From Stagnimonas sp. (GTDB lineage Bacteria; Pseudomonadota; Gammaproteobacteria; Nevskiales; Nevskiaceae), in contig JAUSQI010000125.1 in NCBI GenBank assembly GCA_030652575.1, forward strand, positions 19,240-51,239: 32,000 nucleotides of DNA. The letters are read 5' to 3'. This document shows, piece after piece, positions 5,475 through 32,000 of the stretch. Both the position numbers and the translations under genes were made by a program. The number at the start of each line of letters is the position of its first letter. The stretch's first letter is position 1. The notes under the pieces were generated by a model. That model was not told the origin of the DNA. It ran no database searches and saw nothing but the letters and a program-made list of their open reading frames with translations.

Positions 5475-5529
5475 GCGGGCGATCAGCCGTCGGAATTGAC
5501 AAACAAATGTAAATTTTGAGGTGCGAGCA

Positions 5530-7164: not shown

Positions 7165-7614
7165 GTGAGCCCAGGAGCTGCACTGCACCTTGGCCTGCAT
7201 GCGCTGATCCCTGCCCTGCTGGCTTGGCTCTTGTTCCGAGAGCGATTTTTGTGGGCTGCCTGCTGGCTGCTGGCCGGCTGGGGGATAGATATCGATCACC
7301 TACTCGCCACACCCATCTACTCGGCCGGTCGCTGCAGTCTGGGATTCCACCCCCTGCATACACTTCCCGCGATTGTGCTCTACGCCACCCTCATGGTGGC
7401 GAAGCCATTGAGGCTGCTCGGCCTTGGCTTGCTCATCCATATTGCTCTCGACGGAATCGATTGCCTGCGAATGGCCTGCAAGGTTCAAAGTCACAAGATG
7501 TCGATACACCATGAGCATCACTTTCAAGGCAACTCAGTGATGGGGCCAGGTCACCTCATTCTGCTGACTAGCAATCTTTCTGAACAAAGTCATTACGCGA
7601 GGATGCAGGCATGA
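7165..7614 (+). CDS. small polytopic membrane protein, DUF6122-like, with a His-rich C-terminal tail
   Basis: GTG start 6 nt after an AGGAG that overlaps the upstream stop. HLGLHALIPALLAWLLF...IDIDHLLATPIY...C.LGFHPLH matches my recollection of DUF6122. The tail reads SIHHEHHF. The stop overlaps the next start as ATGA. Confidence 0.55.
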   Translation: MSPGAALHLGLHALIPALLAWLLFRERFLWAACWLLAGWGIDIDHLLATPIYSAGRCSLGFHPLHTLPAIVLYATLMVAKPLRLLGLGLLIHIALDGIDCLRMACKVQSHKMSIHHEHHFQGNSVMGPGHLILLTSNLSEQSHYARMQA

Positions 7615-13342: not shown

Positions 13343-13349
13343 CAGCAAG

Positions 13350-15472: not shown

Positions 15473-15601
15473 AGCTGTTCTCTCCTCAATGTTTGCGTAC
15501 CGGGGGCGAAGCCATCTGCCGCCCGGTTACACAATGCCTGTGCGCTATTAGCTGCAATCCGCTGAAATCCTCGCAGAGGGCCACGAACACGAATGCAAAT
15601 A

Positions 15602-15623
15602 ATATAGTGCGTAGTGACTATAT
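15602..15623. promoter_or_regulatory. operator-like inverted repeat ATATAGT-N8-ACTATAT in the DUF1302/DUF3450 intergenic region
   Basis: Perfect 7-bp arms read directly from the sequence. They lie within a cluster of (C)ATAGTG motifs. The function is not established. Confidence 0.4.
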
Positions 15624-15681
15624 CTACATTTTCACTCAAATAACAGCCGCCTCTACCCGTCGCGAAGTCACTATGGTAGAG

Positions 15682-18174: not shown

Positions 18175-18253
18175 GATTGGGTGCTGTAGTAAGAGATGGA
18201 GTCGTTGGCCGCCAGCGCAGAGGTTGCCGGCACAAATGTTGTCGCTCCGACGT

Positions 18254-18727
18254 TCAAGGTTGGGTGGCCTCTTCGACAATGACGTTGACACTCTTGATTG
18301 TTGACTTGATGGTCTTGTGGTCACCATCCGCCCAGAACACTTTCAGGGTGTGCGGGCCTGGCTTTGCCGGCAGATCGAAGACGAAGAGGTACCGATCGCC
18401 ACCGAGGCGGATGAGCTGGTCGTTTACCGGCATCAGCGAGATACCTTCGGTCTCGATGTGAAGATGTGTGCCCACCGTAGGCGCACTCATGGTGAGACGA
18501 CGCAGGTCGCCAGGCGTTTCAAAAATCAGGGCCAGCTGGGTCCCAACTCTGGCACCTTCAGTCGGCATCAGGATGCGCAGCGCAGGCACCTCCGTCGGTG
18601 CAGCGCCCTGCCCCGTCGCAGACTTTGCGTGGTGGGCATGATGGTGCTCATGTCCGACCTCTGCGGAGAATGCAGCGAGTGGGAACAGCGCTGAAGTCAA
18701 CAATGCGAACAGGGGTTTGGTATTCAT
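18254..18727 (-). CDS. periplasmic His-rich protein, DUF4399-like (putative metal/copper-binding)
   Basis: ATG at 18727 gives a 157-aa protein with signal peptide MNTKPLFALLTSALFPLAAFSA. This is followed by EVGHEHHHAHH, and then by VGTHLHIE...PGPHTLKVFWADGDHK, which resembles the DUF4399 pattern (GHHHL..D ... pGxHTL...D..H). Confidence 0.55.
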   Translation of the reverse strand: MNTKPLFALLTSALFPLAAFSAEVGHEHHHAHHAKSATGQGAAPTEVPALRILMPTEGARVGTQLALIFETPGDLRRLTMSAPTVGTHLHIETEGISLMPVNDQLIRLGGDRYLFVFDLPAKPGPHTLKVFWADGDHKTIKSTIKSVNVIVEEATQP

Positions 18728-18764
18728 GCGTGAGGTCCTTGTGTAAGGCTGTGGAAAAAGAGGG

Positions 18765-20732
18765 TTAGTGGACGTGATCGTCTGGCGGCGGCTTGAGTTG
18801 TGGCTCGAGGTTGAGCGTTGCGAGCTGGGGGTAGAGTTTTTCAAGCTGGTCCCAACCGTCAGAGTCTGCTTCAGCGATCCAGCGCGCACGCAAGTATCCG
18901 AAGCGATCAATCAGGAACTCGACGTGTTGCCACTCCATGCCGAGACGGTCTGGCATGCCGCGATTTGCAACCGTGCGCGACAACAATTCGTAAGACGACC
19001 AGATCGGTGTGCCGCCCCCTTGGATGACCGTGAATGGCAAACCGGCGGGTATCGGGAGCGCGGTATCGACCACCGCTAGAATGGTCGTGCGCAGACCTGC
19101 CAGCTGGCCTTGTGCCTCCGCCAACTGCATGAGACGTCCTTTGGCTGTAGGCCCTTCAAGAAATACCAGCAAGACATTATGCAAACCTCGATAGCCCTTG
19201 AGTTCCATCGGGCCAGCTGGTTGCTCGATGTAGAAATTCGGCGCGCCTAACCAAGGCTGCTTTGGGGTCACCTGCGGCCGCAGCAGACGCGCTTCGAAGC
19301 CCTGCGAAAAAGTGCGCAGAAAATTGATGACGTCCCAGCGGTCGGTGACAGTCATCACCTTCTCGAATCCAGGCATGCCGCCGGCGGGAATTCCGTGCGT
19401 CAACCACCAGTGCATATCGCCAGCAGTGTGCAGTGCCGTGTGCGGTTCGCTGAGATTGGCCGGCAACCGTGGCAACGATTTTGCGAACGGGCCATCACCC
19501 AAGCCACCGCTACCGTGGCAACCAGTGCAGTGCGCCTCATACAGGGCACGACCTTCGGCGATTGAGACTGTCAGATAAGGTACATCTGAGCGCCGAAAGC
19601 TATCCGGATAGGCAGGCACCGCCAGTGCCCAGCACAACGTCCCAACACTAGCGAGGCCGATGACCCCGCCCAGGATACGCAGTCTGCTGCTGCGCCCCAA
19701 ACCGACCAACAGCGAAGCCACCGTGAGACTGCCGACTGCACCGAGGATCCAAACACGCAGCGCCTTGTCGACCCAAGTGGCATCCCATGACCAGCGAACC
19801 GGCATCCACCAGAAGGCGGTGTCGTGCAGTGCTGGAGTAGTCTGACCAAGCAAGGTAGCGCATCCCAGCATGGCAGCTGCCAACCCCATCTCGATACCGA
19901 CATGCCGCAGCGCCTGAGGTGCGATCTGTAAGGCATCTTCGCCTGAGTGAAGCGCAGGCAGAAAGCGTTGCCGCAACCGGTTGGCAAGCAACAGAACACT
20001 GCCCAACAAGGCGAGCTTCACCAGCAATAATGCCCCGTATCGAGTGCCGAGGAGATCTCCTTCGGTATCAATGTAGTTGTCGGCAAGCAGTAGTCCGCTC
20101 ACGACAATAACCGCCATGAGGCCCGTCGCCAGATGCGAGAAACGCGTCAGTGCATCGGCGAGCCTGGACTGCGATAGCCCGAGGTGGCGATATGAAAATC
20201 GATGCACCGTGATTGCCCATATCGGCAAACCGCCGACCCAGAGCGCAACAGCAATCTGGTGGCTCACATTCAGCAGCAACGCCTCGGCCAGATTCTCGGC
20301 ACCAGCTGCATGTCCTCCCCAAGGTCCAAGACAGATATAGAGCGCTACCAGAGCGGGCAGCAAAGCGATGGCCATGGGGCGGGTCGACTCGTATCGGGTC
20401 AGCACGGCAGCTGGCACCACAAGAAGGGCAACAGCAGCTCGCCACATCCAGACTCGTCCCACGTGAGTATCGAGAATAAATTGGGTCCAGCCGTCAAGCG
20501 TCAGCGCACGTTCACCCAGTGCATTGAACTGGCCTGCCAGAGTGCCGATGTGCAAGAGCAGCAGAAGACCTGAAGGCAGCAGCCAAAAAAGCAGCTCACT
20601 GCGGACATCAGTTCGGGCGGTGTGCGGCCCCAGATCGCGGAGACAGAAATAGCGAAACAGGGTGGTGCCGATGATGACCGACCCGGATATTGCGGCCATC
20701 CACCGGCAGACGCCGGCGACGGCTTCAATCAT
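18765..20732 (-). CDS. copD: CopD-family copper-transport membrane protein fused to a class-I cytochrome c domain and a Cys-less thioredoxin-fold-like C-terminal domain
   Basis: 655 aa. Residues ~1-375 are polytopic and CopD-like. The heme motif CTGCH (nt 19515-19529) is followed by a downstream GGMPGF Met ligand region. Residues ~495-655 have a redoxin-like layout (NVLLVFLEG...ILAVVDT...EFLIDRFGYLR) without a CxxC. Confidence 0.8.
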   Translation of the reverse strand: MIEAVAGVCRWMAAISGSVIIGTTLFRYFCLRDLGPHTARTDVRSELLFWLLPSGLLLLLHIGTLAGQFNALGERALTLDGWTQFILDTHVGRVWMWRAAVALLVVPAAVLTRYESTRPMAIALLPALVALYICLGPWGGHAAGAENLAEALLLNVSHQIAVALWVGGLPIWAITVHRFSYRHLGLSQSRLADALTRFSHLATGLMAVIVVSGLLLADNYIDTEGDLLGTRYGALLLVKLALLGSVLLLANRLRQRFLPALHSGEDALQIAPQALRHVGIEMGLAAAMLGCATLLGQTTPALHDTAFWWMPVRWSWDATWVDKALRVWILGAVGSLTVASLLVGLGRSSRLRILGGVIGLASVGTLCWALAVPAYPDSFRRSDVPYLTVSIAEGRALYEAHCTGCHGSGGLGDGPFAKSLPRLPANLSEPHTALHTAGDMHWWLTHGIPAGGMPGFEKVMTVTDRWDVINFLRTFSQGFEARLLRPQVTPKQPWLGAPNFYIEQPAGPMELKGYRGLHNVLLVFLEGPTAKGRLMQLAEAQGQLAGLRTTILAVVDTALPIPAGLPFTVIQGGGTPIWSSYELLSRTVANRGMPDRLGMEWQHVEFLIDRFGYLRARWIAEADSDGWDQLEKLYPQLATLNLEPQLKPPPDDHVH

Positions 20733-21129
20733 TCACTGCACCTGCTGCCTGGATGCGGAAACCGTAACCGTATTCGACGATGTGACCGTCTACCGAAAGC
20801 ACCTTGTATTTCACGGTGTAACTGCCGTTCGCAAGCGCTGGCAGAGGCACGATCAGACAGCGTGTCTTGGCTCCATCTCTCGCCGGCGGCGGCAGCACTA
20901 CCGCCTTGCCTGCCCCGTCCTCAAGCAGCACTTTGGAAAAGCCCGCCTCGACGTTTTCGTTGAAGCACAGTCGGATCTGCTTTGGTGCGATGCTCAAGAC
21001 TGCGCGTCGCCCGGGTTCCGAACTAATCATGCCGGCATGAGCAGATGCAGCAGTCGGCAGCACCAACAAAAACACAAGTGCTGCCGCCTCTGTGGCGACA
21101 CTGGCCCGCAGCAACGCGCGCGTCGTCAT
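20725..21129 (-). CDS. copC: periplasmic copper-binding protein CopC (Cu(II)-site type)
   Basis: Signal peptide ending ASA|HAGMISSEP, so the mature N-terminus is a His. It has SVDGH near the C-terminus and no Met-rich Cu(I) loop. ATGA overlap with the upstream gene and an 8-nt overlap with copD. Confidence 0.85.
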   Translation of the reverse strand: MTTRALLRASVATEAAALVFLLVLPTAASAHAGMISSEPGRRAVLSIAPKQIRLCFNENVEAGFSKVLLEDGAGKAVVLPPPARDGAKTRCLIVPLPALANGSYTVKYKVLSVDGHIVEYGYGFRIQAAGAVND

Positions 21130-21722
21130 GATGTGCTTTTTGCAGCTTTGCGTGATGTCAAATAATAGGCAAGGCCGGCAAGTCCCAGCGAGAAGATTGC
21201 GGCACCCACGTAACGACCGTAGTGACGAACGCCGACTCGGAACGGGAAAACCGAATGTTCGACCTTGCCAGTTTTTGGGTCGGTCGCCGTGAGGAATCCG
21301 ATATACCAGCCGGAGGCCTCAAAGACGTGATCGAACGTCAGTGTGCCTCGCGGGTAAATGCCGGCAGGCATTTTCACGACCGTCGCCGCATCGATCTCCT
21401 CTGCATTGCCTAAATCCTCGTAACGACCGGCGGCCTTGCGATTCTTCACATCGCGCAGCACCCGAAACTCGACACGCTGCTCACGAAGTGCTGGTGTGAT
21501 GTAGTCGATCACGATGATCGCTCGCCCCAATTCAGGAATGTCTTCGCAGAACTCCTGGGTGGCCCGCACCTCCGGCTGATAGCCGGTGAAGTGGGCACGC
21601 ATGCCGGCAACCTTGAGAATGCAGTTGTCGTCCTCAATAGACACACCGCCGTGTGCCTCTGCCTCAAGTGGCAACAGCAGTATCAAGGTCGCGACGGAAA
21701 ACGCAGTGAGTAGTTTCTTCAT
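21126..21722 (-). CDS. PmoD/AmoD-like periplasmic protein with a C-terminal membrane anchor (putative)
   Basis: ATG at 21722 gives 198 aa. The signal peptide is MKKLLTAFSVATLILLLPLEAEA|HGG. A Cys-x6-Met-x2-His cluster (CILKVAGMRAH) sits near the mature N-terminus. A single C-terminal TM helix (YVGAAIFSLGLAGLAYYL) is followed by a basic tail. The position between pmoB and copCD matches amoD/pmoD. Confidence 0.5.
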   Translation of the reverse strand: MKKLLTAFSVATLILLLPLEAEAHGGVSIEDDNCILKVAGMRAHFTGYQPEVRATQEFCEDIPELGRAIIVIDYITPALREQRVEFRVLRDVKNRKAAGRYEDLGNAEEIDAATVVKMPAGIYPRGTLTFDHVFEASGWYIGFLTATDPKTGKVEHSVFPFRVGVRHYGRYVGAAIFSLGLAGLAYYLTSRKAAKSTS

Positions 21723-21730
21723 CGCAGGGG

Positions 21731-22960
21731 TTATCCGAATACCGGGATCATCGGGCCGCCAAACTCGACCAGATAACGTTTGCCGGTGCCTGTATAAAAG
21801 TGCAGCAGCCCTGCAACAACCGCATCGGGTGAAGCGATCATGGTGGTCATCCGTTCGGTCTCCCACATCGCATCGTCTGCGTAGATCACCAGACGCTTGG
21901 TTTCACCGGGTGCCACGGGGCCGCCCTCCACGCGCAGGGCATCAGGCGCAAGAAGATCATGCTCGTCAAGAGGCTTGACCTTCAGCACAGCCGAGTTGAT
22001 GAAGCGCAGATTTCCCGCAGCGAACTCGCCGACAGTGATTGGCTCATCGCCTCGGTTGGTTACTTCGACCTCAAGACGGAAACTGCGACCAGGAATTCGA
22101 TATCTTGCTTCGATGAGCTTGATGGATACGGGATTGGGCGCACGTTCGATCGCCGGGACATCGACTCGCCCGGTTTGCAGTGGAGTCGTGATCGGGTATT
22201 GCTCCTGTGCATACAGGTAACCACCGGCAATCAATCCGAGTGTCAGCAGCAGAAAGCCACCTGCTATACGGCGATCCCACGTCGTAATCATCTCATCGGC
22301 TCTAGTACCCAACTCCTGCGCGCGTTTGAATCTCGGCACGATGATCGGGCACTTGGTCAGCCAGTAGATGAACCAGGCGAGCCCTACGGAAAACCAGAGT
22401 GCAGACCAGAACACGACATTGGAGAAGCCATACGTTTCAAGATCGATTTTCTTGCCCAGCAACGTGGTTGTGCTGTTCTCAAAGTCCGCAAAGCTGCCGG
22501 TGACCTCAACCCAGATACCAGGGCCGATGATCGGCCCGGTGCCTTTGACGTTGATCACAGGATGGACGTGATAGCGACCTGGCTTGCGAGCCTTCATCGT
22601 CACCTCGAAGTCATAGAGCTCGCCGTAACGAAACGAGGTAGAGCGAATCATCGGAACGCCATTGACACGCGAATCCAGACGCACAAAGGAAGGCCCCGGC
22701 ACCCCGATATTGAGATAGGCAGTGTCTTCGATAGAGTTCACGTGATGAGGCCAATACTTCGAGGGCATGAACTGCCCCTTGATCGTAATGACCTCATTCA
22801 CTGCCAGTTTGGCGGTGGAGACTTGGACATCTAGCCAATGGACCGTGCGCATGCGCAACTGCGGCATCTGCGCGCGTTCACCGTGTGCTACGGCTTCAAG
22901 TGGCAGGAGGCTGATGAAGAACACCAGCGCGGAGATACTCAGAGAAAGAATGGTTTTCAT
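21731..22960 (-). CDS. pmoB: copper membrane monooxygenase subunit B (PmoB/AmoB family)
   Basis: 409 aa, collinear with M. capsulatus PmoB as I recall it. Matching segments are A|HGERAQ...MRTVHWLD, RYHVHPVINVKGTGPIIGPG, two central TM helices, YPITTPLQ, and C-terminal APGETKRL...LIPVFG-like. The CuB ligands (N-terminal His plus HxH) are present. Confidence 0.93.
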   Translation of the reverse strand: MKTILSLSISALVFFISLLPLEAVAHGERAQMPQLRMRTVHWLDVQVSTAKLAVNEVITIKGQFMPSKYWPHHVNSIEDTAYLNIGVPGPSFVRLDSRVNGVPMIRSTSFRYGELYDFEVTMKARKPGRYHVHPVINVKGTGPIIGPGIWVEVTGSFADFENSTTTLLGKKIDLETYGFSNVVFWSALWFSVGLAWFIYWLTKCPIIVPRFKRAQELGTRADEMITTWDRRIAGGFLLLTLGLIAGGYLYAQEQYPITTPLQTGRVDVPAIERAPNPVSIKLIEARYRIPGRSFRLEVEVTNRGDEPITVGEFAAGNLRFINSAVLKVKPLDEHDLLAPDALRVEGGPVAPGETKRLVIYADDAMWETERMTTMIASPDAVVAGLLHFYTGTGKRYLVEFGGPMIPVFG

Positions 22961-22969
22961 GTGAGGGTC

Positions 22970-23737
22970 CTAGACGATCTTGCGAATCCAGATCGCTTTA
23001 GTACCGAGGTACCCGATCCAGAGCCAGAACCAGTAATTGAGGATGTTGAGAAAGCCTGCAAACACTGCCGTGAGTGGCGTTACAGCTTCCCCGAAAGTGC
23101 GAAGCGTGGACTCTTCAATGATCCGAACGTACTCCGGGATTGCTGTACGGATGTATTCGTAGCCCAGCGTGTCTGCGACCGTCAGCATCGTGCCGTGCAT
23201 TTCCACGGGCACTTGAAAGGGCGCGAGCATCGACCAGTTGAGTGGATACAGGAATGCACCGACCGCAAAACCACCAAACAAGCCCGTCCAGAAAAAGCTT
23301 CGGGTCAGCAGCAGCATGCAATCCAGTATCAAGCCCAGTCCGATGTAGGTTGAAGGCCAGACAAAGTTCATCGGAAAGTCGGCGAACAAGTGGAAGTTCA
23401 GATAGCGGCTTATCCAGGCCGCAAAGGTCAGACAAAGAATGGTGAGCGTACCTCCAAGAGGTAGGCGCAGCTTGTCCCACAAGACGTATGAGAAAACGGC
23501 GGGCAACACCGTGATCGCCAAGGGCGTAACCAAGGGCCACCAGCGGCGGTCACGCCAATCCACCCAGTAGTCCCAGTCACCAACCAGCAGTGCGAAGTGA
23601 AAGCTGAAGATGCCGGCGAATAGCAACACCACTAGTGGGATGGCAAGAAGATCCACTTGGATGTAAGCCTTGCGCTGCTCAGCCGATGAGGACATACCTG
23701 ATCTGGTTGCCGATACCGCTTGCGAGCTCTTGCTCAT
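22970..23737 (-). CDS. pmoA: copper membrane monooxygenase subunit A (PmoA/AmoA family)
   Basis: ATG at 23737 (GGAG RBS) gives 255 aa. GDWDYWVDWRDRRWWP, RYLNFHLFADFPMNFVWPS and GYEYIRTAIPEYVRIIEESTLRTFG all closely match PmoA/AmoA conserved blocks. Confidence 0.93.
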   Translation of the reverse strand: MSKSSQAVSATRSGMSSSAEQRKAYIQVDLLAIPLVVLLFAGIFSFHFALLVGDWDYWVDWRDRRWWPLVTPLAITVLPAVFSYVLWDKLRLPLGGTLTILCLTFAAWISRYLNFHLFADFPMNFVWPSTYIGLGLILDCMLLLTRSFFWTGLFGGFAVGAFLYPLNWSMLAPFQVPVEMHGTMLTVADTLGYEYIRTAIPEYVRIIEESTLRTFGEAVTPLTAVFAGFLNILNYWFWLWIGYLGTKAIWIRKIV

Positions 23738-23956
23738 TCTCAACTCCGATTTATGTGGTGCCCGCCGCCCGAGCCTGCTGAGGACGCTCGCTGCACCGTT
23801 TAGTTTTTTTGTGACAAGGCAAACCATGCTGCGAGGAGCGACGCACCGGTTAGGGGCCCGCAACTTCAAATCAATGGCGGATGCTCTTTTTCAAGCTCTC
23901 AGCAGGCCACATGTGGAATCCCTCGTGGCCAGCTGAGAAGACTTGAGGAACCTTCG

Positions 23957-24724
23957 TTACCCAGCAGCCAATACTTTCTGAGGCTCTGCGCTGTCCTCGG
24001 AAACAAGCCGTGTCAGCTCGACGATGCGTGTCAGCAGTTGAACCAGCAAACCGCCCGCTGCAAATGCCGACCACCCCAGCAGAACGAAGCCCCAATGGAT
24101 CGGCGCTGCAAAAAGCTCTTCCGCGTAGAAGAAGGTGTGCCCCCATTCGTTGAGGCCTAAGTTGGGCATGATCATGATCGGCCCAGCAACCAGCAGTGCA
24201 AAAGGCAATGACACCCGGTCGGCGAACTGCGGAAGCCGGGTTCGTGCGTATACGAACGCCGCAACGCCAGACATGATGAACATCGGGATCGCGAAGTAGA
24301 ACAGCACAATGTGGGTCGGTGTGAAATCGGTATCACGGACGGTCACTTGATGCCATGCCGCGTCGGCCTCCGTGAAGGGAGAGGCTGTTAGATAGGCGAT
24401 GCACGCGAACAGCAGAATCTGCGAGAGAAGCACGAAATAGCGGCGCAGCTCTTCCGCCGGCTCCAGCTTGTCCAAGTTGCGATCTCGTGTCACCAGAAGC
24501 CAACCGACAATGCCTGCACCAGCCAGCGCCAGCACCGGCAACTGGATATACAAAAGCCTCATCCAGTACTGCTGAAACTCGGGCGAGAAATAGTCAAGCC
24601 CAACGGTAAAGGCTGTTGCATGCTGATAGACGCGATAGGCCGAAAAAATGATCGCAACCAACGAAAGCAACAGAAAAAAACGCGCCCAAGGTGTCTTGGG
24701 GGAACTATATGCGGCTGTCTTCAT
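23957..24724 (-). CDS. pmoC: copper membrane monooxygenase subunit C (PmoC/AmoC family)
   Basis: ATG at 24724 (GAGGAG RBS 8 nt upstream) gives 255 aa. GLDYFSPEFQQYWM, EADAAWHQVTVRDTDFTPTH and NLGLNEWGHTFFYAEELFAAPIHWG are present. Equivalents of the CuC (D, H, H) and CuD (N, H, H) ligand triads are all present. Confidence 0.93.
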   Translation of the reverse strand: MKTAAYSSPKTPWARFFLLLSLVAIIFSAYRVYQHATAFTVGLDYFSPEFQQYWMRLLYIQLPVLALAGAGIVGWLLVTRDRNLDKLEPAEELRRYFVLLSQILLFACIAYLTASPFTEADAAWHQVTVRDTDFTPTHIVLFYFAIPMFIMSGVAAFVYARTRLPQFADRVSLPFALLVAGPIMIMPNLGLNEWGHTFFYAEELFAAPIHWGFVLLGWSAFAAGGLLVQLLTRIVELTRLVSEDSAEPQKVLAAG

Positions 24725-24784
24725 GGTGTTTTCTCCTCTCAAGTATTACTGCCTTTCCGCGCGGACTTGGCGAAGGCATGGCAG

Positions 24785-24813
24785 ACGGTAGTCACACATC
24801 CGCTCATTGTCAA
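24785..24813 (-). promoter_or_regulatory. candidate sigma70 promoter for pmoC (-35 TTGACA, 17-nt spacer, -10 TACCGT)
   Basis: Perfect -35 hexamer on the minus strand (24808-24813) but a weak -10 (24785-24790). About 60 nt upstream of the pmoC ATG. Sequence inspection only. Confidence 0.3.
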
Positions 24814-24844
24814 TAGTGGAGATATGCACTCTGCATTATTGCAT

Positions 24845-24874
24845 TTGACAGCACGTTCCTCCTTTTCGCATAGT
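24845..24874 (+). promoter_or_regulatory. candidate sigma70 promoter for the acyl-CoA synthetase/aldehyde dehydrogenase operon (-35 TTGACA, 18-nt spacer, -10 CATAGT)
   Basis: Perfect -35 at 24845-24850 and a -10-like CATAGT at 24869-24874, back to back with the pmoC candidate promoter. Sequence inspection only. Confidence 0.35.
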
Positions 24875-25022
24875 GCGTATTGTCGCTATTTGCTTTATGG
24901 GTCGACGCTCAGTGGTCTACATCGTCGTCAGTTAAGCGGACCGTGCAAGTCGATCCACACAAGAAAAATCAAAGAAGAGCGCATTGATCTGCATTTCAAC
25001 AGCTAGATGAGGAGGTGCCCCA

Positions 25023-26741
25023 ATGAATGTCGGCAATCCATTTCCATGGACCAAGTTTTCGCCCCCCGCCTACGACCTCGATGTCGTTCAGAGTCTTGCG
25101 CAGCAGATCGAATTGCACGCACGCACGCGCGGCGACCAGCCCGCAGCCGAATACCTCAGCAGCACGCTGACATACCGGCAACTAGATTGCCTTGGAAATC
25201 GGCTTGCACGTCACTTGATGGCACGCGGCCTCACGAGTGGCGAAGTGATTGCGATACACCTGCCAAATGTCCCCCAGTACCTGATCGGCCTAGTCGCTGC
25301 CTCCAAGTTGGGATGTCCCGTTACGGGAGTCTCGCCGCTGCTCACAGCTCCTGAACTCGTCCATCAGATGGCAGATTCTGGCGCCAGAGCGCTACTCACC
25401 CTCGATTCGCTCTATCGCCAAGCGGTGATGCCCGTTGCCGAGCAACTTGGCGGGCTTCGCTGTGCAGTCGTTACGGGGCCGATCGACTTCCTCCCGGCTC
25501 TGAAGCGAACACTGGCGTACGGACTAAAGAAGTTGCCTCGTGTGGAATGGAAGGCGATCCCAGGGCGAGCCACCGACCCATGGCTGGACGCAATGAAACG
25601 GCGTAACGATTCGAATGTGAGTTCACCGATTTCAGCAAATGACACGGTACTCATTCAATACACCGGAGGAACCACTGGGAAGCCGAAGGGCGCGGAACTG
25701 AGCTTGAGCAACCTCAGTGCGAATGCCGCGCAAGCCTCGTGTTTTCTTGGGTACCAGCCGACCGATACCGTGGCTTCAGCGTTTCCGCTCTTCCACCTCG
25801 CCGGGCTTGCCATTTCATTGATGTCGCTACGAAGCGGTGCGAGGCAATTGCTGATCCCTAATCCGAGAGACATTGGTCACTTCGTCGCCCAGATGCAGAA
25901 GTTTCCGCCGACCATGATGGGAAATGTGCCGTCGATGTATCAGATGCTGATGGATCATCCGGATTTCACTCGCATTGATTTCACCAATCTAAGACTCGCA
26001 TTCTCTGGTGCCGCCCCTTTCGCGGTCGAGGCCATTCACAAGCTGGAAACGTTCGTCGGCAAGAACAAGCTCTGCGAGGTCTACGGCATGACCGAGGCCA
26101 GTCCGTTGATGACCATCAACCCTCCCGCTCGCGCCAAGCCGGGGACGGTTGGCATCCCGGTCCCAGGATGCAATCTCAAGATCATGGATGTCGAAACCGG
26201 CCAGATCGAAATGCCTACTGGCGAGCCCGGCGAGATCACGCTCTGCGGCCCTCAGGTGATGAAGGGCTATCGCAATGCCCGGGAAGCCACTGCCAAGACC
26301 GTACGAACACGCGATGGCGAACGATGGCTCTACTCCGGTGATGTCGGCTACCTCGATGAGGAGGGTTACCTCACCATTTCGGATCGCGCCAAGGACATGT
26401 TGATCGTCGGCGGCTTCAAGGTGTTTTCAGTTGAGGTCGAGGGCAAGCTCAAGGAATTGTCCTTCATCGAACACGCCGCGTTGATCGGTGTGCCTGATCC
26501 GGTCAAGCCTGGCAACGAGACAGTACACCTTTTCGTGCAACGGTCCCAAGCGCATCTGGCTGACGATGTCGCAGCGCTACAGCAGAAAATACTGGAGTTC
26601 TGCCGCGCCAACATGGCGCCGTACAAGATTCCAAAGCGAATCCACTTCATCGCAGCCATGCCGCTGACTGCGGTCGGCAAGCTCGACAAGAAGCTGCTCC
26701 GCAGCCAGCTAATGACCGAAATTCAGGAGAACGCCGCATGA
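25023..26741 (+). CDS. AMP-dependent acyl-CoA synthetase (FadD-like fatty-acid--CoA ligase)
   Basis: 572 aa with the AMP-binding signature IQYTGGTTGKPKGA, YGMTEASP, SGDVGYLDEEGYLTISDRAKD and a C-terminal GKLDKK. GAGGAGG RBS. Confidence 0.9.
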   Translation: MNVGNPFPWTKFSPPAYDLDVVQSLAQQIELHARTRGDQPAAEYLSSTLTYRQLDCLGNRLARHLMARGLTSGEVIAIHLPNVPQYLIGLVAASKLGCPVTGVSPLLTAPELVHQMADSGARALLTLDSLYRQAVMPVAEQLGGLRCAVVTGPIDFLPALKRTLAYGLKKLPRVEWKAIPGRATDPWLDAMKRRNDSNVSSPISANDTVLIQYTGGTTGKPKGAELSLSNLSANAAQASCFLGYQPTDTVASAFPLFHLAGLAISLMSLRSGARQLLIPNPRDIGHFVAQMQKFPPTMMGNVPSMYQMLMDHPDFTRIDFTNLRLAFSGAAPFAVEAIHKLETFVGKNKLCEVYGMTEASPLMTINPPARAKPGTVGIPVPGCNLKIMDVETGQIEMPTGEPGEITLCGPQVMKGYRNAREATAKTVRTRDGERWLYSGDVGYLDEEGYLTISDRAKDMLIVGGFKVFSVEVEGKLKELSFIEHAALIGVPDPVKPGNETVHLFVQRSQAHLADDVAALQQKILEFCRANMAPYKIPKRIHFIAAMPLTAVGKLDKKLLRSQLMTEIQENAA

Positions 26742-28195
26742 ATGCACCACTGCGCAGCGAGGCCGTTCCGATGCAGATGATCGAGGCCACCAAGCCAGCG
26801 ATTTCGGACATGTTTGCAAGTCAGCGCAACACGGCGCTGCGTTGGCGCACATCAGCGGCCGCCGAACGCATCGAACGCATTCGTCGTCTGCGAGATGCCG
26901 TGCAGAAAGCCGCGCCCGCAATCCGGCTCGCCGCCGCTGCGGATTTTAGGAAGCCTGAAGCAGAAGTTGATTTGACCGAGCTTTTCACGGTGGTGGCAGA
27001 GGCGAACATGGCCATCCGCCGCTTGAAGCGATGGATGAAACCGCAGAAAGTGTCTACCAGCCTGCTCATGCTGGGCACACAAGGCCGGGTGGAATATCAG
27101 CCACGCGGCCGCTGCCTGATTGTGTCGCCTTGGAACTACCCGGTGAACCTCAGCTTTTGCCCGCTCATCCTCGCACTGGCCGCAGGCAACACAGCCATCA
27201 TCAAACCATCGGAGCTGACACCGCATCTCGCGGCAGTGATGCAGGGGATCATCGACGAAACTTTCCCCGCCGACGAAGTGGCGCTGATTCAGGGTGATGC
27301 CGAGGTGGCCAAAGTGCTGCTATCCCTCCCTTTCGATCACATTTTTTTTACCGGCTCGCCGGCGCTTGGTAAGCAGGTCATGGCCGCTGCTGCGCGCAAT
27401 CTCACCAGCGTCACGCTGGAACTGGGAGGCAAGAGCCCCACAGTGGTCGATGCCAGCGCCGATCTCGTGGCGGCCGTCAACAACATCTGTTGGTCGAAGT
27501 TCATGAACAATGGACAGACCTGCGTCGCGCCCGATCACGTCTTCGTACATGAGTCGATAGCCGACGCTTTTGTGGAAGGCATGCGCGCCAGGATCACCGC
27601 CGTCTACGGCAGCGACGCATCCGCCCGCTTCAACTCCCCTGATCTCGCACGCATCGTCAACGCTCGCCATACCGCCAGAGTGCGGCATCTGCTGGATGAC
27701 GCAAGCGCACGAGGCGCACAAATCGTGGTGGGAGGCGAGGTTGTTGAAGAGAGTTGCTTCATCTCACCAACCGTGCTCGATCGAGTGCCCGTGGATGCCG
27801 CGATCATGCGTGAAGAAATCTTCGGGCCCCTGCTGCCGGTGATCCGGTTCAGCGAGCTGGACGAAGTGATCGAACGCATCAATGCGGATGAAAAGCCCTT
27901 GGCTCTTTATCTCTGGGGACGCGACCGTCAGCGCATCCGCACCCTTCTTGATCGCACTTCTTCCGGCGGTGCCTGTGTGAACAACACAGTCGTGCAGGTC
28001 TTGCATCCCAATCTTCCGTTCGGCGGCGTCAATCATTCTGGATTGGGCAGCACGCATGGCGAGTTTGGGTTCCGCGCATTTTCCCATCCTCGTGCAATCG
28101 CGGATACCCGCATCGCATTGGTCAGCTTGTTCTACGCGCCCTATACCGCGCGTGTTCGAGCTCTCATCCGTCTGGTCCTCCGCTGGATGGCCTGA
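26738..28195 (+). CDS. NAD(P)+-dependent aldehyde dehydrogenase (class-3 / coniferyl- or fatty-aldehyde dehydrogenase-like)
   Basis: 485 aa. It has ELGGKSP (catalytic Glu), GQTCVAPD (catalytic Cys), EEIFGPLLP and PFGGVNHSGLG. ATGA start/stop overlap with the synthetase gene. Confidence 0.9.
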   Translation: MNAPLRSEAVPMQMIEATKPAISDMFASQRNTALRWRTSAAAERIERIRRLRDAVQKAAPAIRLAAAADFRKPEAEVDLTELFTVVAEANMAIRRLKRWMKPQKVSTSLLMLGTQGRVEYQPRGRCLIVSPWNYPVNLSFCPLILALAAGNTAIIKPSELTPHLAAVMQGIIDETFPADEVALIQGDAEVAKVLLSLPFDHIFFTGSPALGKQVMAAAARNLTSVTLELGGKSPTVVDASADLVAAVNNICWSKFMNNGQTCVAPDHVFVHESIADAFVEGMRARITAVYGSDASARFNSPDLARIVNARHTARVRHLLDDASARGAQIVVGGEVVEESCFISPTVLDRVPVDAAIMREEIFGPLLPVIRFSELDEVIERINADEKPLALYLWGRDRQRIRTLLDRTSSGGACVNNTVVQVLHPNLPFGGVNHSGLGSTHGEFGFRAFSHPRAIADTRIALVSLFYAPYTARVRALIRLVLRWMA

Positions 28196-28259: not shown

Positions 28260-28297
28260 GATTTGCAGTTCTCATCGACTTGAAAGGAGACACAACC

Positions 28298-29476
28298 TTG
28301 ATCCGTCATACCGTCGTCAGTGGTGTCGGCATGGTGCCGTTTGCAAAGCCTGGCAGTTCCGCACCCTATTTCGAGATGGGTGCCGATGCCGTGCGCCGCG
28401 CGCTGGCCGACGCGGGCGTCGACTACCGTAAGGTGCAGCAGGCCTATGTGGGCTACGTATATGGCGACTCCACCTGCGGACAGCGCGCGCTTTACCCGGT
28501 AGGCATGACCGGCATCCCGATCATCAATGTCAACAACAACTGCTCGACCGGCTCGACGGCACTCTTTCTTGCCCGGCAGGCGGTCGAGAGCGGTGCCGCC
28601 GAATGTGTATTGGCGCTCGGTTTCGAGCAGATGAAACCCGGCGCGCTGGGTAGCTACTTCAACGACAGGCCCACGCCGTTCGAGCCCTTCGACCAGGTCT
28701 GTGACGAGCTGGTAGGCCAGACGGAAATCCCGATGGCAATCCGTTACTTCGGTGGCGCCGGCATGGCGCACATGGAGAAATACGGCACCAAGGCCGAGAC
28801 CTTCGCCAAGATTCGCGCCAAGGCCAGCCGTCACGCGGCGAACAACCCGGTGGCCCTGTTCCGCAAGGAAGTCAGTGTCGAGGAAGTGATGGCCTCACCC
28901 GTGCTGATGGGGCCTTTGACGCGACTAATGGCCTGTCCGCCAACCTGCGGCGCGGCGGCGGCCATCATTTGTTCCGAGGCGTTCGCGAAGGCCAACGGTC
29001 TCGATCACCGCGTGAAGATTGCCGCGCAGGCGATGACCACCGACACGCCCAGCACCTTCGAGGCACGCAACATGATGCAGCTAGTCGGCAGCGATATGGC
29101 CCGCGCGGCGGGTGATCTGGTCTATGCCGCTGCTGGCATCGGCCCGGAGGACGTGGATGTGGTGGAGTTGCACGACTGCTTTGCCACCAACGAGCTGCTC
29201 AGCTACGAGGCGCTGCGGCTGGCCCCTGAGGGTGGCGGTGAGAAGATGGTGGCAGACGGTGACAACACCTACGGAGGACGGGTGGTGACCAACCCGTCGG
29301 GTGGACTGCTTTCCAAGGGCCATCCGCTGGGTGCCACAGGGCTTGCCCAATGCACCGAGCTGGTTCAGCAGCTACGTGGTCAGGCCGATGCCCGGCAGGT
29401 CGCGGGCGCGAGGATTGCCTTGCAACACAATTTGGGTCTCGGCGGTGCCTGTGTCGTCACGCTGTATCAGGTCTGA
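28298..29476 (+). CDS. SCP-x / nonspecific lipid-transfer-type thiolase (3-ketoacyl-CoA thiolase, SCP2-thiolase class)
   Basis: NVNNNCSTGSTALFLA (nucleophilic Cys retained), GGLLSKGHPLGATGLAQ and HNLGLGGACVV. TTG at 28298 (AGGAGA RBS 7 nt upstream) is preferred over the track's TTG at 28280. Confidence 0.85.
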   Translation: MIRHTVVSGVGMVPFAKPGSSAPYFEMGADAVRRALADAGVDYRKVQQAYVGYVYGDSTCGQRALYPVGMTGIPIINVNNNCSTGSTALFLARQAVESGAAECVLALGFEQMKPGALGSYFNDRPTPFEPFDQVCDELVGQTEIPMAIRYFGGAGMAHMEKYGTKAETFAKIRAKASRHAANNPVALFRKEVSVEEVMASPVLMGPLTRLMACPPTCGAAAAIICSEAFAKANGLDHRVKIAAQAMTTDTPSTFEARNMMQLVGSDMARAAGDLVYAAAGIGPEDVDVVELHDCFATNELLSYEALRLAPEGGGEKMVADGDNTYGGRVVTNPSGGLLSKGHPLGATGLAQCTELVQQLRGQADARQVAGARIALQHNLGLGGACVVTLYQV

Positions 29477-29488
29477 GGCGCAGCCCCC

Positions 29489-29947
29489 ATGATCAATACT
29501 AAGCACATCGGGCGTGAGCTGCCGCCGGTAACCTTTGAGGTGGAAAAAGGCCGCCTGCGCTTCTTCGGCAAGGCCACGGGCGAGACGCGTCCGGAGTATC
29601 TCGACGAGACTGCTGCGCTGGACGCCGGGCATCCCTCCATTCCCGCGCCACCGACCTTTGTCTTCGCCGCTGAACTCGATGCCGGCACGCTGTTTTCGCT
29701 GCTGGAGGAATTGCAGGTGCCACTGGGTCACATCCTGCATGGCGAGCAGCAGTTCACCTACCACGCCCCCGTGCATGCCGGTGATGTGCTGACAGTGCAG
29801 TCCACCATCGCGGACATCTACGCCAAGAAGAACGGCGAACTGGAGTTCGTCATCAAGGACTCCAGCGTCCGCAATCAGCATGGCCACCAAGTGCTTGAAG
29901 CGCGTAGCGTGATTGTTGTCCGCAACCCTGGCGAGAAATCCGTATGA
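29489..29947 (+). CDS. MaoC-family dehydratase, N-terminal-type hot-dog subunit (non-catalytic partner of a split R-hydratase)
   Basis: 152 aa. Its layout ...FFGKATGE....Y.D......AG...IPAPPTF......HGEQQFTYH.P...GD.L resembles FAS1-like or MaoC N-terminal dehydratase domains. The stop overlaps the next start. Confidence 0.75.
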   Translation: MINTKHIGRELPPVTFEVEKGRLRFFGKATGETRPEYLDETAALDAGHPSIPAPPTFVFAAELDAGTLFSLLEELQVPLGHILHGEQQFTYHAPVHAGDVLTVQSTIADIYAKKNGELEFVIKDSSVRNQHGHQVLEARSVIVVRNPGEKSV

Positions 29948-30363
29948 GTATTCCCAGTTGGGACACTGTGAGCGTCGGCGACGCGCTGCCGACGTTGGCA
30001 TTGCCGGCTATCAGTCGCACGACGCTGGCGCTGTTCGCTGGCGCTTCGGGCGACCACAATCCGATTCACATCGACAGCGATTTCGCCAGGGCTGCCGGGA
30101 TGGAGGACGTCTTTGCGCAGGGCATGTTGCCGATGGCATACCTCGCTCGCCTGCTCACCACCTGGGCACCTCAATGGCAGCTACGACAGTTCCACGTTCG
30201 CTTCTCCTCGATGACTGCGGTCGGCACCAAGCTCGTTTGCAGCGGCATGGTCACCGAGAAGTTGGAGCGAGACGGCGAGCGGCTGGCAAAACTGCAACTT
30301 GCAGTCTGCGACGAACAGGGTGTGGCCAAAATCAAAGGCGAGGCGCTGGTCGCACTCACTTGA
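29944..30363 (+). CDS. MaoC-like (R)-specific enoyl-CoA hydratase, catalytic hot-dog subunit
   Basis: 139 aa with the hydratase-2 motif LFAGASGDHNPIHIDSDFA followed by FAQGML. Confidence 0.85.
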   Translation: MSIPSWDTVSVGDALPTLALPAISRTTLALFAGASGDHNPIHIDSDFARAAGMEDVFAQGMLPMAYLARLLTTWAPQWQLRQFHVRFSSMTAVGTKLVCSGMVTEKLERDGERLAKLQLAVCDEQGVAKIKGEALVALT

Positions 30364-30397
30364 CATCCCACCTAAAAAATACTTCAGGAGATTCCGC

Positions 30398-31222
30398 ATG
30401 AAATTGGCAGGCAAGGTGGCACTGGTCACTGGATCGGGACGCGGCATTGGCCGGGAAATTGCGCTCAAGCTGGCCGCAGAAGGGGCGGCGGTGGTCGTCA
30501 ACGATCTCGACGCAGCGCCGGCAGAAGAAACCATCGAGGCAATCAAGGCGCTTGGCGGCACCGCCGTCGCCTGCATCGGCAGCGTCACCGAAAGCGGCTT
30601 TGCCGAGCGTTTTGTCGGCACTGCCATCGAGCAATTGGGCGGCCTCGACATCATCGTCAACAATGCCGGCTACACCTGGGATAACGTCATCCACAAGATG
30701 AGCGATGAACAGTGGCACGCGATCATGAACGTGCATGTCACTGCGCCCTTCCAGATTCTGCGGGCCGCCTCCGAGTTCCTGCGGGTGCAATCCAAGAAGG
30801 AGGCCATGGAGGGGCGCGAAGTATTCCGCAAGGTGGTCAACATCTCTTCCATCGCCGGCACTGGCGGTAACGCCGGGCAGGCCAATTATTCGGCGGGCAA
30901 GGCGGCGATCATCGGGCTGACCAAGGCGATGTCGAAGGAATGGGGACGCTACAAGGTCAACGTCAACTGCGTGGCCTTTGGCCTCATCAAGACACGCCTG
31001 ACCGAAGCCACCGCAGATGGCAGCGCCGCGATTGATGTCGAAGGCCGCAGCATCAAGGTCGGCGTCAATCCTGATCTGATGAAGATGATGGAGGCGAATG
31101 TGCCACTGGGTCGTGCCGGCACCCCCGCTGAGGCAGCTGGAGCCGTCTATCTCTTCTGCCTGCCAGAGTCGAATTACGTCAGCGGCCAAGTCATCGTCTG
31201 CGGCGGCGGCTTCTCGATGTAG
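30398..31222 (+). CDS. short-chain dehydrogenase/reductase (FabG / 3-hydroxyacyl-CoA dehydrogenase-like)
   Basis: ATG at 30398 (CAGGAG RBS). It has TGSGRGIGREIA (TGxxxGxG), NNAG and a YSAGK catalytic Tyr-x3-Lys. The track's longer ORF overlaps the upstream gene. Confidence 0.9.
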   Translation: MKLAGKVALVTGSGRGIGREIALKLAAEGAAVVVNDLDAAPAEETIEAIKALGGTAVACIGSVTESGFAERFVGTAIEQLGGLDIIVNNAGYTWDNVIHKMSDEQWHAIMNVHVTAPFQILRAASEFLRVQSKKEAMEGREVFRKVVNISSIAGTGGNAGQANYSAGKAAIIGLTKAMSKEWGRYKVNVNCVAFGLIKTRLTEATADGSAAIDVEGRSIKVGVNPDLMKMMEANVPLGRAGTPAEAAGAVYLFCLPESNYVSGQVIVCGGGFSM

Positions 31223-31231
31223 GCCCGGCTC

Positions 31232-32000
31232 ATGAGCTATCAATCACCGTGGATGGATGCCGACCTCGCACTGTTCCGCGACAACGTCCGGAAGTTCATC
31301 GCCAACGAGATCACCCCTCACGAAGAGCGCTGGGACGGACAACAGCATGTTGATCGGGGACTATGGAACAAGGCTGGTGCTGCCGGTCTGCTTTGCACGG
31401 ACGTGCCTGAGCAATATGGTGGATCCGGCGCTCACTTTGCCTATGAGGCAGTGATTCTCGAAGAGCAGGCGCGTGCTGGCAACACCAGCTGGGCGAAGGG
31501 CGTTCACGAGATTGTTGTGCATTACATTCTCGGCTACGGCACTGAAGAGCAGAAAGCTCGTTGGCTGCCGAAGCTCGCCTCCGGCGAGATGGTGGGTGCG
31601 ATCGCCATGACTGAACCTGGAACGGGCTCGGATCTGCAGGCGGTGCGCACCCGCGCCGAGCGGGAGGGCGACTTCTTCCGTATCAACGGTGCGAAAACGT
31701 TCATCTCCAACGGCCTTCACTGCGACCTGTTGATCATCGTCTGCAAGACAGATCCCGGCGAAACAGGCAAGGGTATATCCCTGATCGTTGCCGAGACCCG
31801 GAACTTGAAGGGCTTCAAACGCGGCCGCTTGTTGCACAAGCTGGGACAGAAAGGACAGGACACTGCCGAGCTGTTCTTCGAAGACATGCTGGTTCCAGCC
31901 GAGAACCTGCTGGGAGGACGCGAGTCACAGGGCTTTGTTCAACTCATGAAGCAACTGCCCCGTGAGCGGCTGATCATCGGCATCGGTGCTATTGCCGCTG
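31232..32000 (+). CDS. acyl-CoA dehydrogenase, C-terminus cut by window edge
   Basis: My translation from ATG 31232 reads MSYQSPWMDADLALFRDNVRKFI...GAIAMTEPGTGSDLQAVRTRAEREGD.F.INGAKTFISNG...GQKGQDTAELFFEDMLVP. These are classic ACAD N-terminal and middle-domain motifs. It is absent from the ORF track because there is no stop in the window. Confidence 0.9.
   Translation, partial: MSYQSPWMDADLALFRDNVRKFIANEITPHEERWDGQQHVDRGLWNKAGAAGLLCTDVPEQYGGSGAHFAYEAVILEEQARAGNTSWAKGVHEIVVHYILGYGTEEQKARWLPKLASGEMVGAIAMTEPGTGSDLQAVRTRAEREGDFFRINGAKTFISNGLHCDLLIIVCKTDPGETGKGISLIVAETRNLKGFKRGRLLHKLGQKGQDTAELFFEDMLVPAENLLGGRESQGFVQLMKQLPRERLIIGIGAIAA

Follow-up and report, generated by a model that had tools for sequence, protein, structure and literature searches.

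A Nevskiales-type copper membrane monooxygenase operon with its own putative copper-supply genes, probably acting on alkanes

We analyzed a 32-kb stretch of a Stagnimonas sp. genome (assembly GCA_030652575.1, contig JAUSQI010000125.1, positions 19,240 to 51,239; here referred to as the window, and the only part of the genome that was examined), in which a first-pass annotation made from the sequence had proposed a complete operon for a copper membrane monooxygenase (CuMMO) of the hydrocarbon type. The genes for the C, A and B subunits, xmoC, xmoA and xmoB, lie head to tail on the minus strand and are followed by pmoD/xmoD, copC, a gene for a CopD–cytochrome c fusion and a gene for a protein without an assigned family, orfX (Table 1). 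The Pfam matches of the three subunits scored 283 (AmoC), 260 (AMO) and 417 (Monooxygenase_B) bits against cut-offs of 23 to 28 and covered nearly the full length of the profiles. The open reading frame (ORF) of xmoC, 24742..23957, reaches back to a TTG at 24742; the ATG at 24724, which is preceded by the ribosome-binding site GAGAGGAG, is the likely start. On public contigs of identical sequence, the start choices of gene callers for xmoC, xmoA and xmoB match those used here. The genes are closely spaced, with 9 nt between xmoB and xmoA, 5 nt from the xmoB stop to the pmoD start, overlaps of the copC start with the pmoD stop (ATGA) and of the copD start with the copC stop, and a gap of 37 nt from copD to orfX. 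Identical copies of the XmoB protein were found on 16 contigs, which come from several metagenomes and two NCBI assemblies; the host is therefore a real, recurrent organism, most likely one of the Nevskiales that resembles Panacagrimonas. The C-A-B-D gene order proposed in the first-pass annotation holds from 24724 down to 21126; the proposed extent does not, because copC, copD–cytochrome c and orfX continue the cluster to 18254. As judged from its sequence, the locus is a real, intact CuMMO operon.

Table 1. Features of the window, with positions counted from its first nucleotide
Feature	Coordinates	Strand	Size and evidence
GMC (AlkJ-like, "choline dehydrogenase" subfamily) alcohol dehydrogenase	5521..7155	+	Pfam GMC_oxred_N, GMC_oxred_C
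WS/DGAT wax-ester synthase	7611..9026		
orfX	18254..18727	-	157 aa, signal peptide; synteny next to copCD
copD–cytochrome c fusion	18765..20732	-	655 aa; Pfam CopD, Cytochrom_C, Cytochrome_CBB3
copC, periplasmic copper-binding protein	20725..21129	-	Pfam CopC E=1e-19; D-G-H motif
pmoD/xmoD	21126..21722	-	198 aa, signal peptide; phmmer vs 6CPD PmoD E=1.2e-16
xmoB, CuMMO B subunit	21731..22960	-	409 aa, signal peptide; Pfam Monooxygenase_B E=1e-124
xmoA, CuMMO A subunit	22970..23737	-	255 aa; Pfam AMO E=3.5e-77
xmoC, CuMMO C subunit	23957..24724	-	255 aa; Pfam AmoC E=2e-84, alignment to solved PmoC chains
Divergent intergenic region between xmoC and acyl-CoA ligase gene	24725..25022	.	Presumed site of both promoters
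Acyl-CoA ligase, FadD-like AMP-binding	25023..26741	+	572 aa; Pfam AMP-binding E=3e-84
Aldehyde dehydrogenase, divergent class-3-like	26738..28195	+	485 aa; Pfam Aldedh E=9e-100
SCPx-type thiolase ("lipid-transfer protein")	28280..29476	+	Beta-oxidation-like set
Hotdog hydratase subunits	29489..29947 and 29944..30363	+	HadA/HadB-like (R)-hydratase
SDR	~30299..31222	+	Beta-oxidation-like set
Acyl-CoA dehydrogenase, partial	From 31232 past window end (32000)	+	Beta-oxidation-like set

Alignment of XmoB to PmoB of Methylococcus capsulatus (3RGB_A) placed H26 at the position of His33, with a predicted mature N-terminus at A/HGERAQ (the slash marks the cleavage site), and H131 and H133 at those of His137 and His139; together, these three residues form the CuB ligand set. 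At the bis-His site, the first residue is retained (H41, equivalent to His48) and the second is replaced by M65 at the position of His72 (GQFMPSKYW vs GKFHVFEGW). Alignment of XmoC to solved PmoC chains identified D121, H125 and H138 as the CuC ligands and N192, H196 and H210 as the CuD ligands (numbering of the 255-aa protein), and the corresponding patterns, D-x3-H-x12-H and N-x3-H-x13-H, match the CuC and CuD sets defined in the literature. To these sequences we added orthologs from 28 related loci, which were identified by scanning one genome per species (GTDB species representatives) and are referred to by L numbers where they have to be told apart. None of the nine CuB, CuC and CuD ligands varies among the 29 clade sequences, the window included, and the residue at the His72 position is Met, Ile or Val throughout. 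Thus, the N-terminal His and the HVH motif of the B subunit, the two ligand patterns of the C subunit and the loss of the second bis-His residue, all noted before from the window sequence, were borne out by the alignments.

A recent review proposed that the region around CuD may set the substrate specificity of CuMMOs. The CuD segment of XmoC is HTFFYAEELFAAPIH, and its counterpart in alphaproteobacterial particulate methane monooxygenase (alpha-pMMO) is HTFWFMEELFVAPLH; the changes in the loop (W→F, M→A and V→A) introduce smaller residues. Clade-wide, including the Polaromonas and Rhodoferax enzymes, the CuD segment differs solely by A/S and I/V exchanges at two loop positions; the CuC segment, too, is nearly identical, with only conservative changes at a few nonligand positions. 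The XmoC active-site segments thus appear indistinguishable from those of the Polaromonas and Rhodoferax enzymes, and the default expectation is therefore the same substrate class.

Among the GTDB species representatives, the closest XmoB is that of Aquabacterium sp. CECT 9606 (80% identity), followed by those of Solimonas sp. SE-A11 (76%), of Panacagrimonas, Nevskia, Polycyclovorans and Nevskiaceae metagenome-assembled genomes (MAGs; 71–76%), of Panacagrimonas perspica DSM 26377 (69%), of Polaromonas sp. AET17H-212 and AER18D-145, Rhodoferax and Hydrogenophaga (64–65%), of Solimonas aquatica DSM 25927 (63%) and of remoter gammaproteobacterial MAGs (50–57%). Taken together, identities to the Panacagrimonas, Solimonas, Nevskia and Polycyclovorans relatives range from 63 to 79% for XmoB and from 77 to 87% for XmoA (S. 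aquatica, 77%); the best nonself match of XmoA is a Panacagrimonas MAG, with 83% by BLASTP and 87% over trimmed alignment columns. Sinimarinibacterium is also among the nearest relatives, all of which are nonmethanotrophic and nonnitrifying taxa, and a wider clade holds sequences with 50–67% identity from Pseudomonadales and Porticoccaceae MAGs. More than 120 clusters (90% identity) score 262 to 495 bits against XmoA, compared with 180 to 215 bits for the A chains of solved pMMO and ammonia monooxygenase (AMO), the solved AMO chains scoring below the solved pMMO chains. XmoA is 41–42% identical to PmoA of M. capsulatus and M. alcaliphilum and 35% identical to a Methylacidiphilum PmoA, XmoB is 44% identical to M. 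capsulatus PmoB, and XmoC is 48% identical to M. trichosporium PmoC.

In a 50%-identity library with 180 family matches, XmoA falls into one cluster, whose representative is 53% identical; the remaining representatives are at most 44% identical, partial-length fragments excepted. In a bootstrapped neighbor-joining tree of XmoA, the window sequence groups with the Panacagrimonas MAG at 96% support within a Nevskiales/Betaproteobacteria group; this group lies in a wider gamma-/betaproteobacterial clade apart from gamma-pMMO, Methylacidiphilum PmoA and an actinobacterial representative. XmoA scores below the NCBIfam equivalog cut-offs (AmoA_BACT, 269.6 vs 290 bits; TIGR03080, 246 vs 318) and so does XmoC (AmoC_BACT, 306 vs 319 bits; TIGR03078, 274 vs 281), and XmoB scores above the AmoB and pMMO/AMO B-subunit cut-offs. 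In sum, AmoC, AMO and Monooxygenase_B subunits occur together with the CuB, CuC and CuD ligands, as in the CuMMO family; the relatives, the tree and the position of pmoD right after xmoB, in the window and in all 28 loci, are those of the xmoCABD clade; and with A and C below the equivalog cut-offs and XmoA in a separate cluster and tree clade, the enzyme is set apart from canonical pMMO and AMO. Bit scores, clustering, tree and NCBIfam cut-offs therefore agree with the first-pass annotation, which proposed a hydrocarbon-type xmoCAB(D), and place the enzyme apart from the canonical pmo and amo clades.

By these sequence comparisons, the locus is a member of the Nevskiales/Betaproteobacteria xmoCABD clade, which is already in the literature. 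The betaproteobacterial xmoCABD clusters are said to have been described in 2020 by Rochman et al., who reportedly tied them to ethane and propane assimilation by stable-isotope probing, with induction by propane and without assimilation of methane. A literature search combining CuMMO with Nevskiales gave no match. The xmoCAB genes of the Nevskia MAG nzgw585, including xmoA, are transcribed in groundwater (PMC9562985). We note that Aquabacterium sp. CECT 9606 (L001), a betaproteobacterial isolate, is closer to the window than most Nevskiales (XmoA, 85%; PmoD, 73%), which points either to a recent cross-class transfer of the entire xmoCABD-copCD-orfX cluster or to a contig assigned to the wrong organism.

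The gene downstream of xmoB, previously described as D-like, encodes a true PmoD homolog, as judged from the match to 6CPD (Table 1). The protein has no match in Pfam or NCBIfam. It has the mature N-terminus HGGVSIEDDNC, a cupredoxin-like domain and a C-terminal transmembrane helix, whose hydrophobic stretch is YVGAAIFSLGLAGLAYYL. C35 and C59, 24 positions apart, are invariant in clade PmoD, and H45 lies 10 residues past the first Cys; cupredoxin homology, two invariant Cys residues, the signal peptide and the C-terminal helix are all features of the PmoD/AmoD family. Formation of CuA requires the pattern Cx7MxHxnC (Cys41, Met49 and His51); PmoD proteins of a separate class, Cx9HxnC, whose genes are often found near copC, bind copper but do not form CuA (Fisher et al., PMC6189053). 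PmoD of the window has C35-x6-M-x2-H45, with the Met one position ahead of the Met49 site, and does not have the combination of a Met 8 and a His 10 residues after the first Cys that marks the CuA-forming subclass. Because clade members have R, T, Q or K in place of Met49, we place this PmoD in the Cx9HxnC class. The mature N-terminus HGGV(S/G/A)x(E/D)(D/N)DxC is common to 29 of the 29 clade PmoD proteins, and its predicted exposed N-terminal His lies 10 residues before the first invariant Cys; the PmoD construct from Methylocystis sp. Rockwell has ~3 native residues ahead of Cys41.

A predicted mature N-terminal His is found in XmoB (A/HGE), PmoD (A/HGG) and CopC (A/HAG; in longer form ASA/HAG). 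The signal-peptide end and cleavage site of PmoD and XmoB are encoded by a 25-nt direct repeat (21649-21673 and 22881-22905; 84% identical), the products being LLPLEAEAHG in PmoD and LLPLEAVAHG in XmoB. PmoD signal peptides differ in the related loci, and this repeat therefore looks organism specific; it could be due to chance or to local gene conversion.

Downstream of pmoD, copC and copD–cytochrome c have counterparts in 23 of the 28 related loci, and orfX is next to copCD in 20 of the 28. The CopD fusion contains a c-type cytochrome domain, with CTGCH and a conserved PHTALHTAGD motif, and a C-terminal domain of ~170 aa without a family, in which an EFLxDRFGYxRARW motif and a PPPDDHxH tail are conserved; that the fusion reduces or imports Cu(II) is a guess. 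OrfX combines a His-rich N-terminal stretch, EVGHEHHHAHH, with an Ig/FN3-like beta-sandwich. Its 56 homologs are all annotated as hypothetical and none has a Pfam domain; the Pfam scan of OrfX itself returned solely a subthreshold match to DUF4399 (E=0.0046), and its sequence matches in the PDB were rejected as His-tag artifacts. In the AlphaFold2 model, the predicted local distance difference test (pLDDT) score is 81 overall and >90 over the folded domain, the fold of which matches only generic Ig/FN3 domains. The residues that are invariant in the homolog alignment include H88-L-H90, M99, D118, W132, D134 and H137, and orfX is conserved across gamma- and betaproteobacterial xmo loci. Based on its position and these residues, OrfX is probably a periplasmic metal-binding accessory protein.

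We next compared all proteins of the window with the 28 related loci using tblastn. All 28 loci contain xmoCAB-pmoD. The most widely conserved neighbor of the operon is the aldehyde dehydrogenase (ALDH) gene, which is divergent from and adjoins xmoC in the Nevskiales-type loci L004, L005 and L007–L009 (73–78% identity) and in Aquabacterium L001 (56%), and which also adjoins xmoC in the Polaromonas, Rhodoferax and Hydrogenophaga loci (58–60%). The GMC dehydrogenase of the window, which scores 643 bits against NCBIfam PRK02106 (cut-off, 605), has orthologs of 63–67% identity adjacent to xmo in L001, L012, L014–L018 and L023, and in the Polaromonas-type loci and Aquabacterium this gene sits beside that for ALDH. 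Between the same genomes, the GMC and ALDH proteins are about as divergent as the Xmo subunits, which suggests that the GMC, ALDH and xmo genes were inherited or transferred together.

The other neighbors are less widely shared. In NCBIfam, the acyl-CoA ligase matches long-chain-fatty-acid–CoA ligase models best but reaches none of their cut-offs. The beta-oxidation-like set next to the ALDH gene is conserved in five Nevskiales-type loci only, a WS/DGAT gene lies within ~5 kb of the operon in four loci (L004, L005, L006 and L009), and the wax-ester synthase and TonB/DUF1302/DUF1329 genes are not conserved across the clade. The domain matches recovered every neighbor listed in the first-pass annotation (wax-ester synthase, AlkJ-like dehydrogenase, ALDH, acyl-CoA ligase and beta-oxidation genes), and its statement that C1 and nitrification genes are absent nearby agrees with our finding no gene for methanol, formaldehyde or hydroxylamine oxidation in the 32-kb window. 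Long-chain lipid neighbors as an indicator of the substrate were rejected, since only ALDH and GMC are conserved with the operon. The conserved context is accordingly an alcohol and an aldehyde dehydrogenase, the classic continuation of alkane hydroxylation, and not long-chain lipid metabolism as such.

Several further features of the window were observed. The beta-oxidation set (28280-32000) is of the MFE-2/SCPx type and not of the FadAB type; sets of this type are usually linked to branched or bulky acyl-CoAs. Directly downstream of orfX, the minus strand from 9060 to 18174 encodes DUF1302, DUF3450, a large ExbB/MotA-like protein, ExbB, ExbD, TonB and an 877-aa TPR–DUF1329 fusion; this cluster resembles a TonB2-type system joined to a DUF1302/DUF1329 outer-membrane pair, and as a cluster following the operon it was found only here and in the Panacagrimonas MAGs L007 and L008. 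A 158-aa ORF, orf158 (31361..31837, minus strand), has tblastn matches in related loci and was rejected as an antisense shadow of the acyl-CoA dehydrogenase gene. A partial ORF of >366 aa (1-1098, minus strand) runs off the start of the window, has a weak MUG113 (GIY-YIG-like) match and is unrelated to the operon. No Rfam family matched anywhere in the window.

We consider it likely that the locus encodes a functional CuMMO that belongs to the Nevskiales/Betaproteobacteria xmoCABD clade and is accompanied by a copper-supply module of its own, and that an alkane is its most likely substrate. By homology to the solved pMMO and AMO structures, XmoC, XmoA and XmoB would assemble as a trimer of heterotrimers in the inner membrane, with copper bound at CuB in XmoB (His26, His131 and His133) and at CuC (Asp121, His125 and His138) and CuD (Asn192, His196 and His210) in XmoC. 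Using O2 and two electrons derived from quinol, the enzyme would hydroxylate a small, hydrophobic molecule. This would most likely be an n-alkane and, at a best guess, a gaseous C2–C4 alkane as for the Polaromonas and Rhodoferax homologs. The alcohol product would be oxidized by the coinherited AlkJ-like GMC dehydrogenase and the aldehyde by the divergently encoded ALDH, and the neighboring acyl-CoA ligase would activate the acid for beta-oxidation; the conserved GMC and ALDH partners fit such a route from alkane to alcohol, aldehyde and acid. PmoD, CopC, CopD–cytochrome c and OrfX, whose downstream genes are translationally coupled or closely spaced, may take up and reduce periplasmic copper and hand it on to the enzyme. 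The earlier suggestion of a possibly novel substrate range found no support in the sequence, as the CuD and CuC segments are those of the Polaromonas and Rhodoferax enzymes and the long-chain lipid neighbors are lineage specific.

Several observations weigh against an alkane-oxidizing enzyme of this clade. Support for the broad clade in the neighbor-joining tree is moderate (67%), and the tree was built without labeled AmoA, PxmA, HmoA, Haliea and Mycobacterium references, AmoA being compared by bit score alone. The xmoCAB genes of S. aquatica are listed as a CuMMO of "unknown function" (PMC6215863, PMC8630023). The GMC gene of the window lies 14 kb from the operon and is not adjacent to it, and a GMC/AlkJ-type dehydrogenase and a FadD-like ligase are normally partners in medium- and long-chain metabolism and not typical of C2–C4 substrates. 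A scan of 18000–25200 for promoters and terminators gave counts not above those in shuffled sequence, as did the sigma-70-like matches in 24725..25022; a sigma-54 consensus was sought upstream of xmoC and not found, and no regulator gene was found in the window.

Longer chains are conceivable in view of the AlkJ-type dehydrogenase and the FadD-like ligase. We considered whether the substrate is a medium- or long-chain alkane or another lipid-derived hydrophobic compound, which would be a type of substrate not known for CuMMOs, and whether the neighboring lipid genes reflect that role. The GMC/AlkJ-type and ALDH partners that are conserved across classes, the long-chain FadD models that top the ligase matches, the WS/DGAT genes in the four loci named above, the smaller residues in the CuD loop compared with alpha-pMMO and the fitness defects of Pseudomonas putida DUF1302/DUF1329 mutants on fatty esters are all consistent with such a role. 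However, the Polaromonas and Rhodoferax enzymes, with their reported link to ethane and propane, have this CuD loop too; the WS/DGAT gene and the TonB/DUF1302 cluster are lineage specific and missing from most loci; Nevskiales genomes are rich in lipid genes, so that adjacency is weak evidence; and all ligase matches fall under the family cut-offs. Also, no characterized CuMMO is known to take substrates much past ~C5, longer ones being poor. We therefore regard a longer-chain substrate as unlikely. There is a slim chance that the encoded enzyme is a hydroxylase that depends on copper, acts on medium- or long-chain alkanes or lipid-derived hydrocarbons and works with a coinherited AlkJ-like quinone-linked alcohol dehydrogenase, an ALDH and a dedicated, partly undescribed copper module made up of a Cx9H-class PmoD with an N-terminal His, CopC, the CopD–cytochrome c fusion with its unassigned domain and the His-rich OrfX; if true, a medium- or long-chain substrate would extend CuMMO chemistry past gaseous compounds.

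Smaller substrates other than alkanes have to be weighed as well. That the enzyme is a Haliea-type monooxygenase, which converts alkenes such as ethylene and propylene to epoxides, would be in line with the Pseudomonadales and Porticoccaceae sequences in the broader clade and with Haliea strains with pmo-like genes, which grow on ethylene and degrade ethane, propane and propylene (PMC4036023). Yet the window contains no gene for an epoxyalkane:CoM transferase, an epoxide hydrolase or a glutathione transferase, and the conserved alcohol and aldehyde dehydrogenase partners fit alkane hydroxylation, making an alkene monooxygenase quite improbable. CuMMOs are promiscuous, and a pMMO homolog, PMO3 of Methylacidiphilum, oxidizes acetone (PMC8630023); the link to alkanes could thus be mere co-oxidation by an enzyme for a small oxygenated substrate. 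With XmoA only 35% identical to a Methylacidiphilum PmoA and with dehydrogenase partners that fit a primary alcohol as the product, we find this very improbable. Finally, homologs are publicly annotated as "methane monooxygenase/ammonia monooxygenase subunit A" and XmoB clears the NCBIfam AmoB and pMMO/AMO B cut-offs, as would a divergent methane or ammonia monooxygenase. Against such an enzyme are the 41–48% identity to solved pMMO subunits, the still lower scores of the AMO chains, the A and C subunits under the equivalog cut-offs, the heterotrophic genera in which all close relatives are found, the lack of methanol, formaldehyde or hydroxylamine genes within the 32 kb and the absence of methane assimilation reported by Rochman et al. 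for the related clade; we consider it highly improbable.

The assignment of this clade to the alkane-type enzymes matters for annotation. CuMMO genes from organisms that are neither methanotrophs nor nitrifiers are routinely annotated as "methane/ammonia monooxygenase," which can mislead surveys of the carbon and nitrogen cycles; XmoA and XmoC homologs carry the name "methane monooxygenase/ammonia monooxygenase" despite scores below the cut-offs and could inflate the counts of methanotrophs and nitrifiers in metagenome surveys. Recognizing the clade as alkane-type avoids this error. Close homologs are carried by the cultured strains Panacagrimonas perspica, Solimonas aquatica, Solimonas sp. 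SE-A11, Sinimarinibacterium sp. CAU 1509 and Aquabacterium sp. CECT 9606, and the substrate question of the Nevskiales enzymes is therefore accessible to experiment. Heterologous expression of CuMMOs is limited by "missing components," for which the GMC and ALDH genes, together with the core of xmoCAB, pmoD, copC, copD–cytochrome c and orfX, provide candidates.

Among known systems, the locus most resembles other members of its clade. It shares with the betaproteobacterial xmoCABD loci of Polaromonas AET17H-212 and AER18D-145 and of Rhodoferax the C-A-B-D order (identities of 66–68% for XmoA, 64% for XmoB and 54–62% for PmoD), an identical CuD segment and a nearly identical CuC segment, the N-terminal HGGV..C..H..C pattern of PmoD, nearby copC, copD–cytochrome c and orfX genes and ALDH and GMC genes divergent from xmoC. 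It differs from them in its Nevskiales-type gammaproteobacterial host; in having copC, copD and orfX directly after pmoD, whereas Polaromonas-type loci have the order orfX-copC-copD ~3 kb downstream of pmoD; and in the relocated GMC gene and the acyl-CoA ligase gene between xmoC and the ALDH gene. The Nevskiales xmoCAB loci of S. aquatica DSM 25927 (PMC6215863) and the Nevskia MAG nzgw585 (PMC9562985) belong to the same clade and share the layout xmoCAB-pmoD-copC-copD-orfX, and the Panacagrimonas MAGs L007 and L008 have even the downstream DUF1302–TonB cluster in common with the window. Here, the difference is one of species, the best XmoB among the GTDB species representatives being 80% identical, and nothing is qualitatively different.

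With pMMO (M. capsulatus Bath, 3RGB/7S4H) and AMO (9CL6, 9PXF), the enzyme has in common three subunits in the order C-A-B and the full CuB, CuC and CuD sets, and the accessory pmoD and copCD genes as found in alphaproteobacterial methanotroph and betaproteobacterial ammonia-oxidizer operons. It differs in the 41–48% identity to solved pMMO subunits, the Met at the second bis-His position, the CuD loop (HTFFYAEELFAAPIH vs HTFWFMEELFVAPLH), a non-CuA PmoD of the Cx9HxnC class and a heterotrophic context of lipid and alkane catabolism instead of C1 or nitrogen metabolism. PmoD of Methylocystis sp. Rockwell (6CPD) has the same cupredoxin-like periplasmic domain, two Cys residues 24 apart with a His at +10, a signal peptide, a C-terminal transmembrane helix and a gene directly after that for the B subunit; its CuA ligand Met49 is not conserved in the clade, which has in addition the invariant 10-residue N-terminal extension HGGVSxEDDxC. 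Three points seem less documented, namely, the cross-class conservation of GMC and ALDH, the seven-gene core with orfX and CopD–cytochrome c, and the invariant N-terminal His in this subclass of PmoD. These are details of a known system and not a new one.

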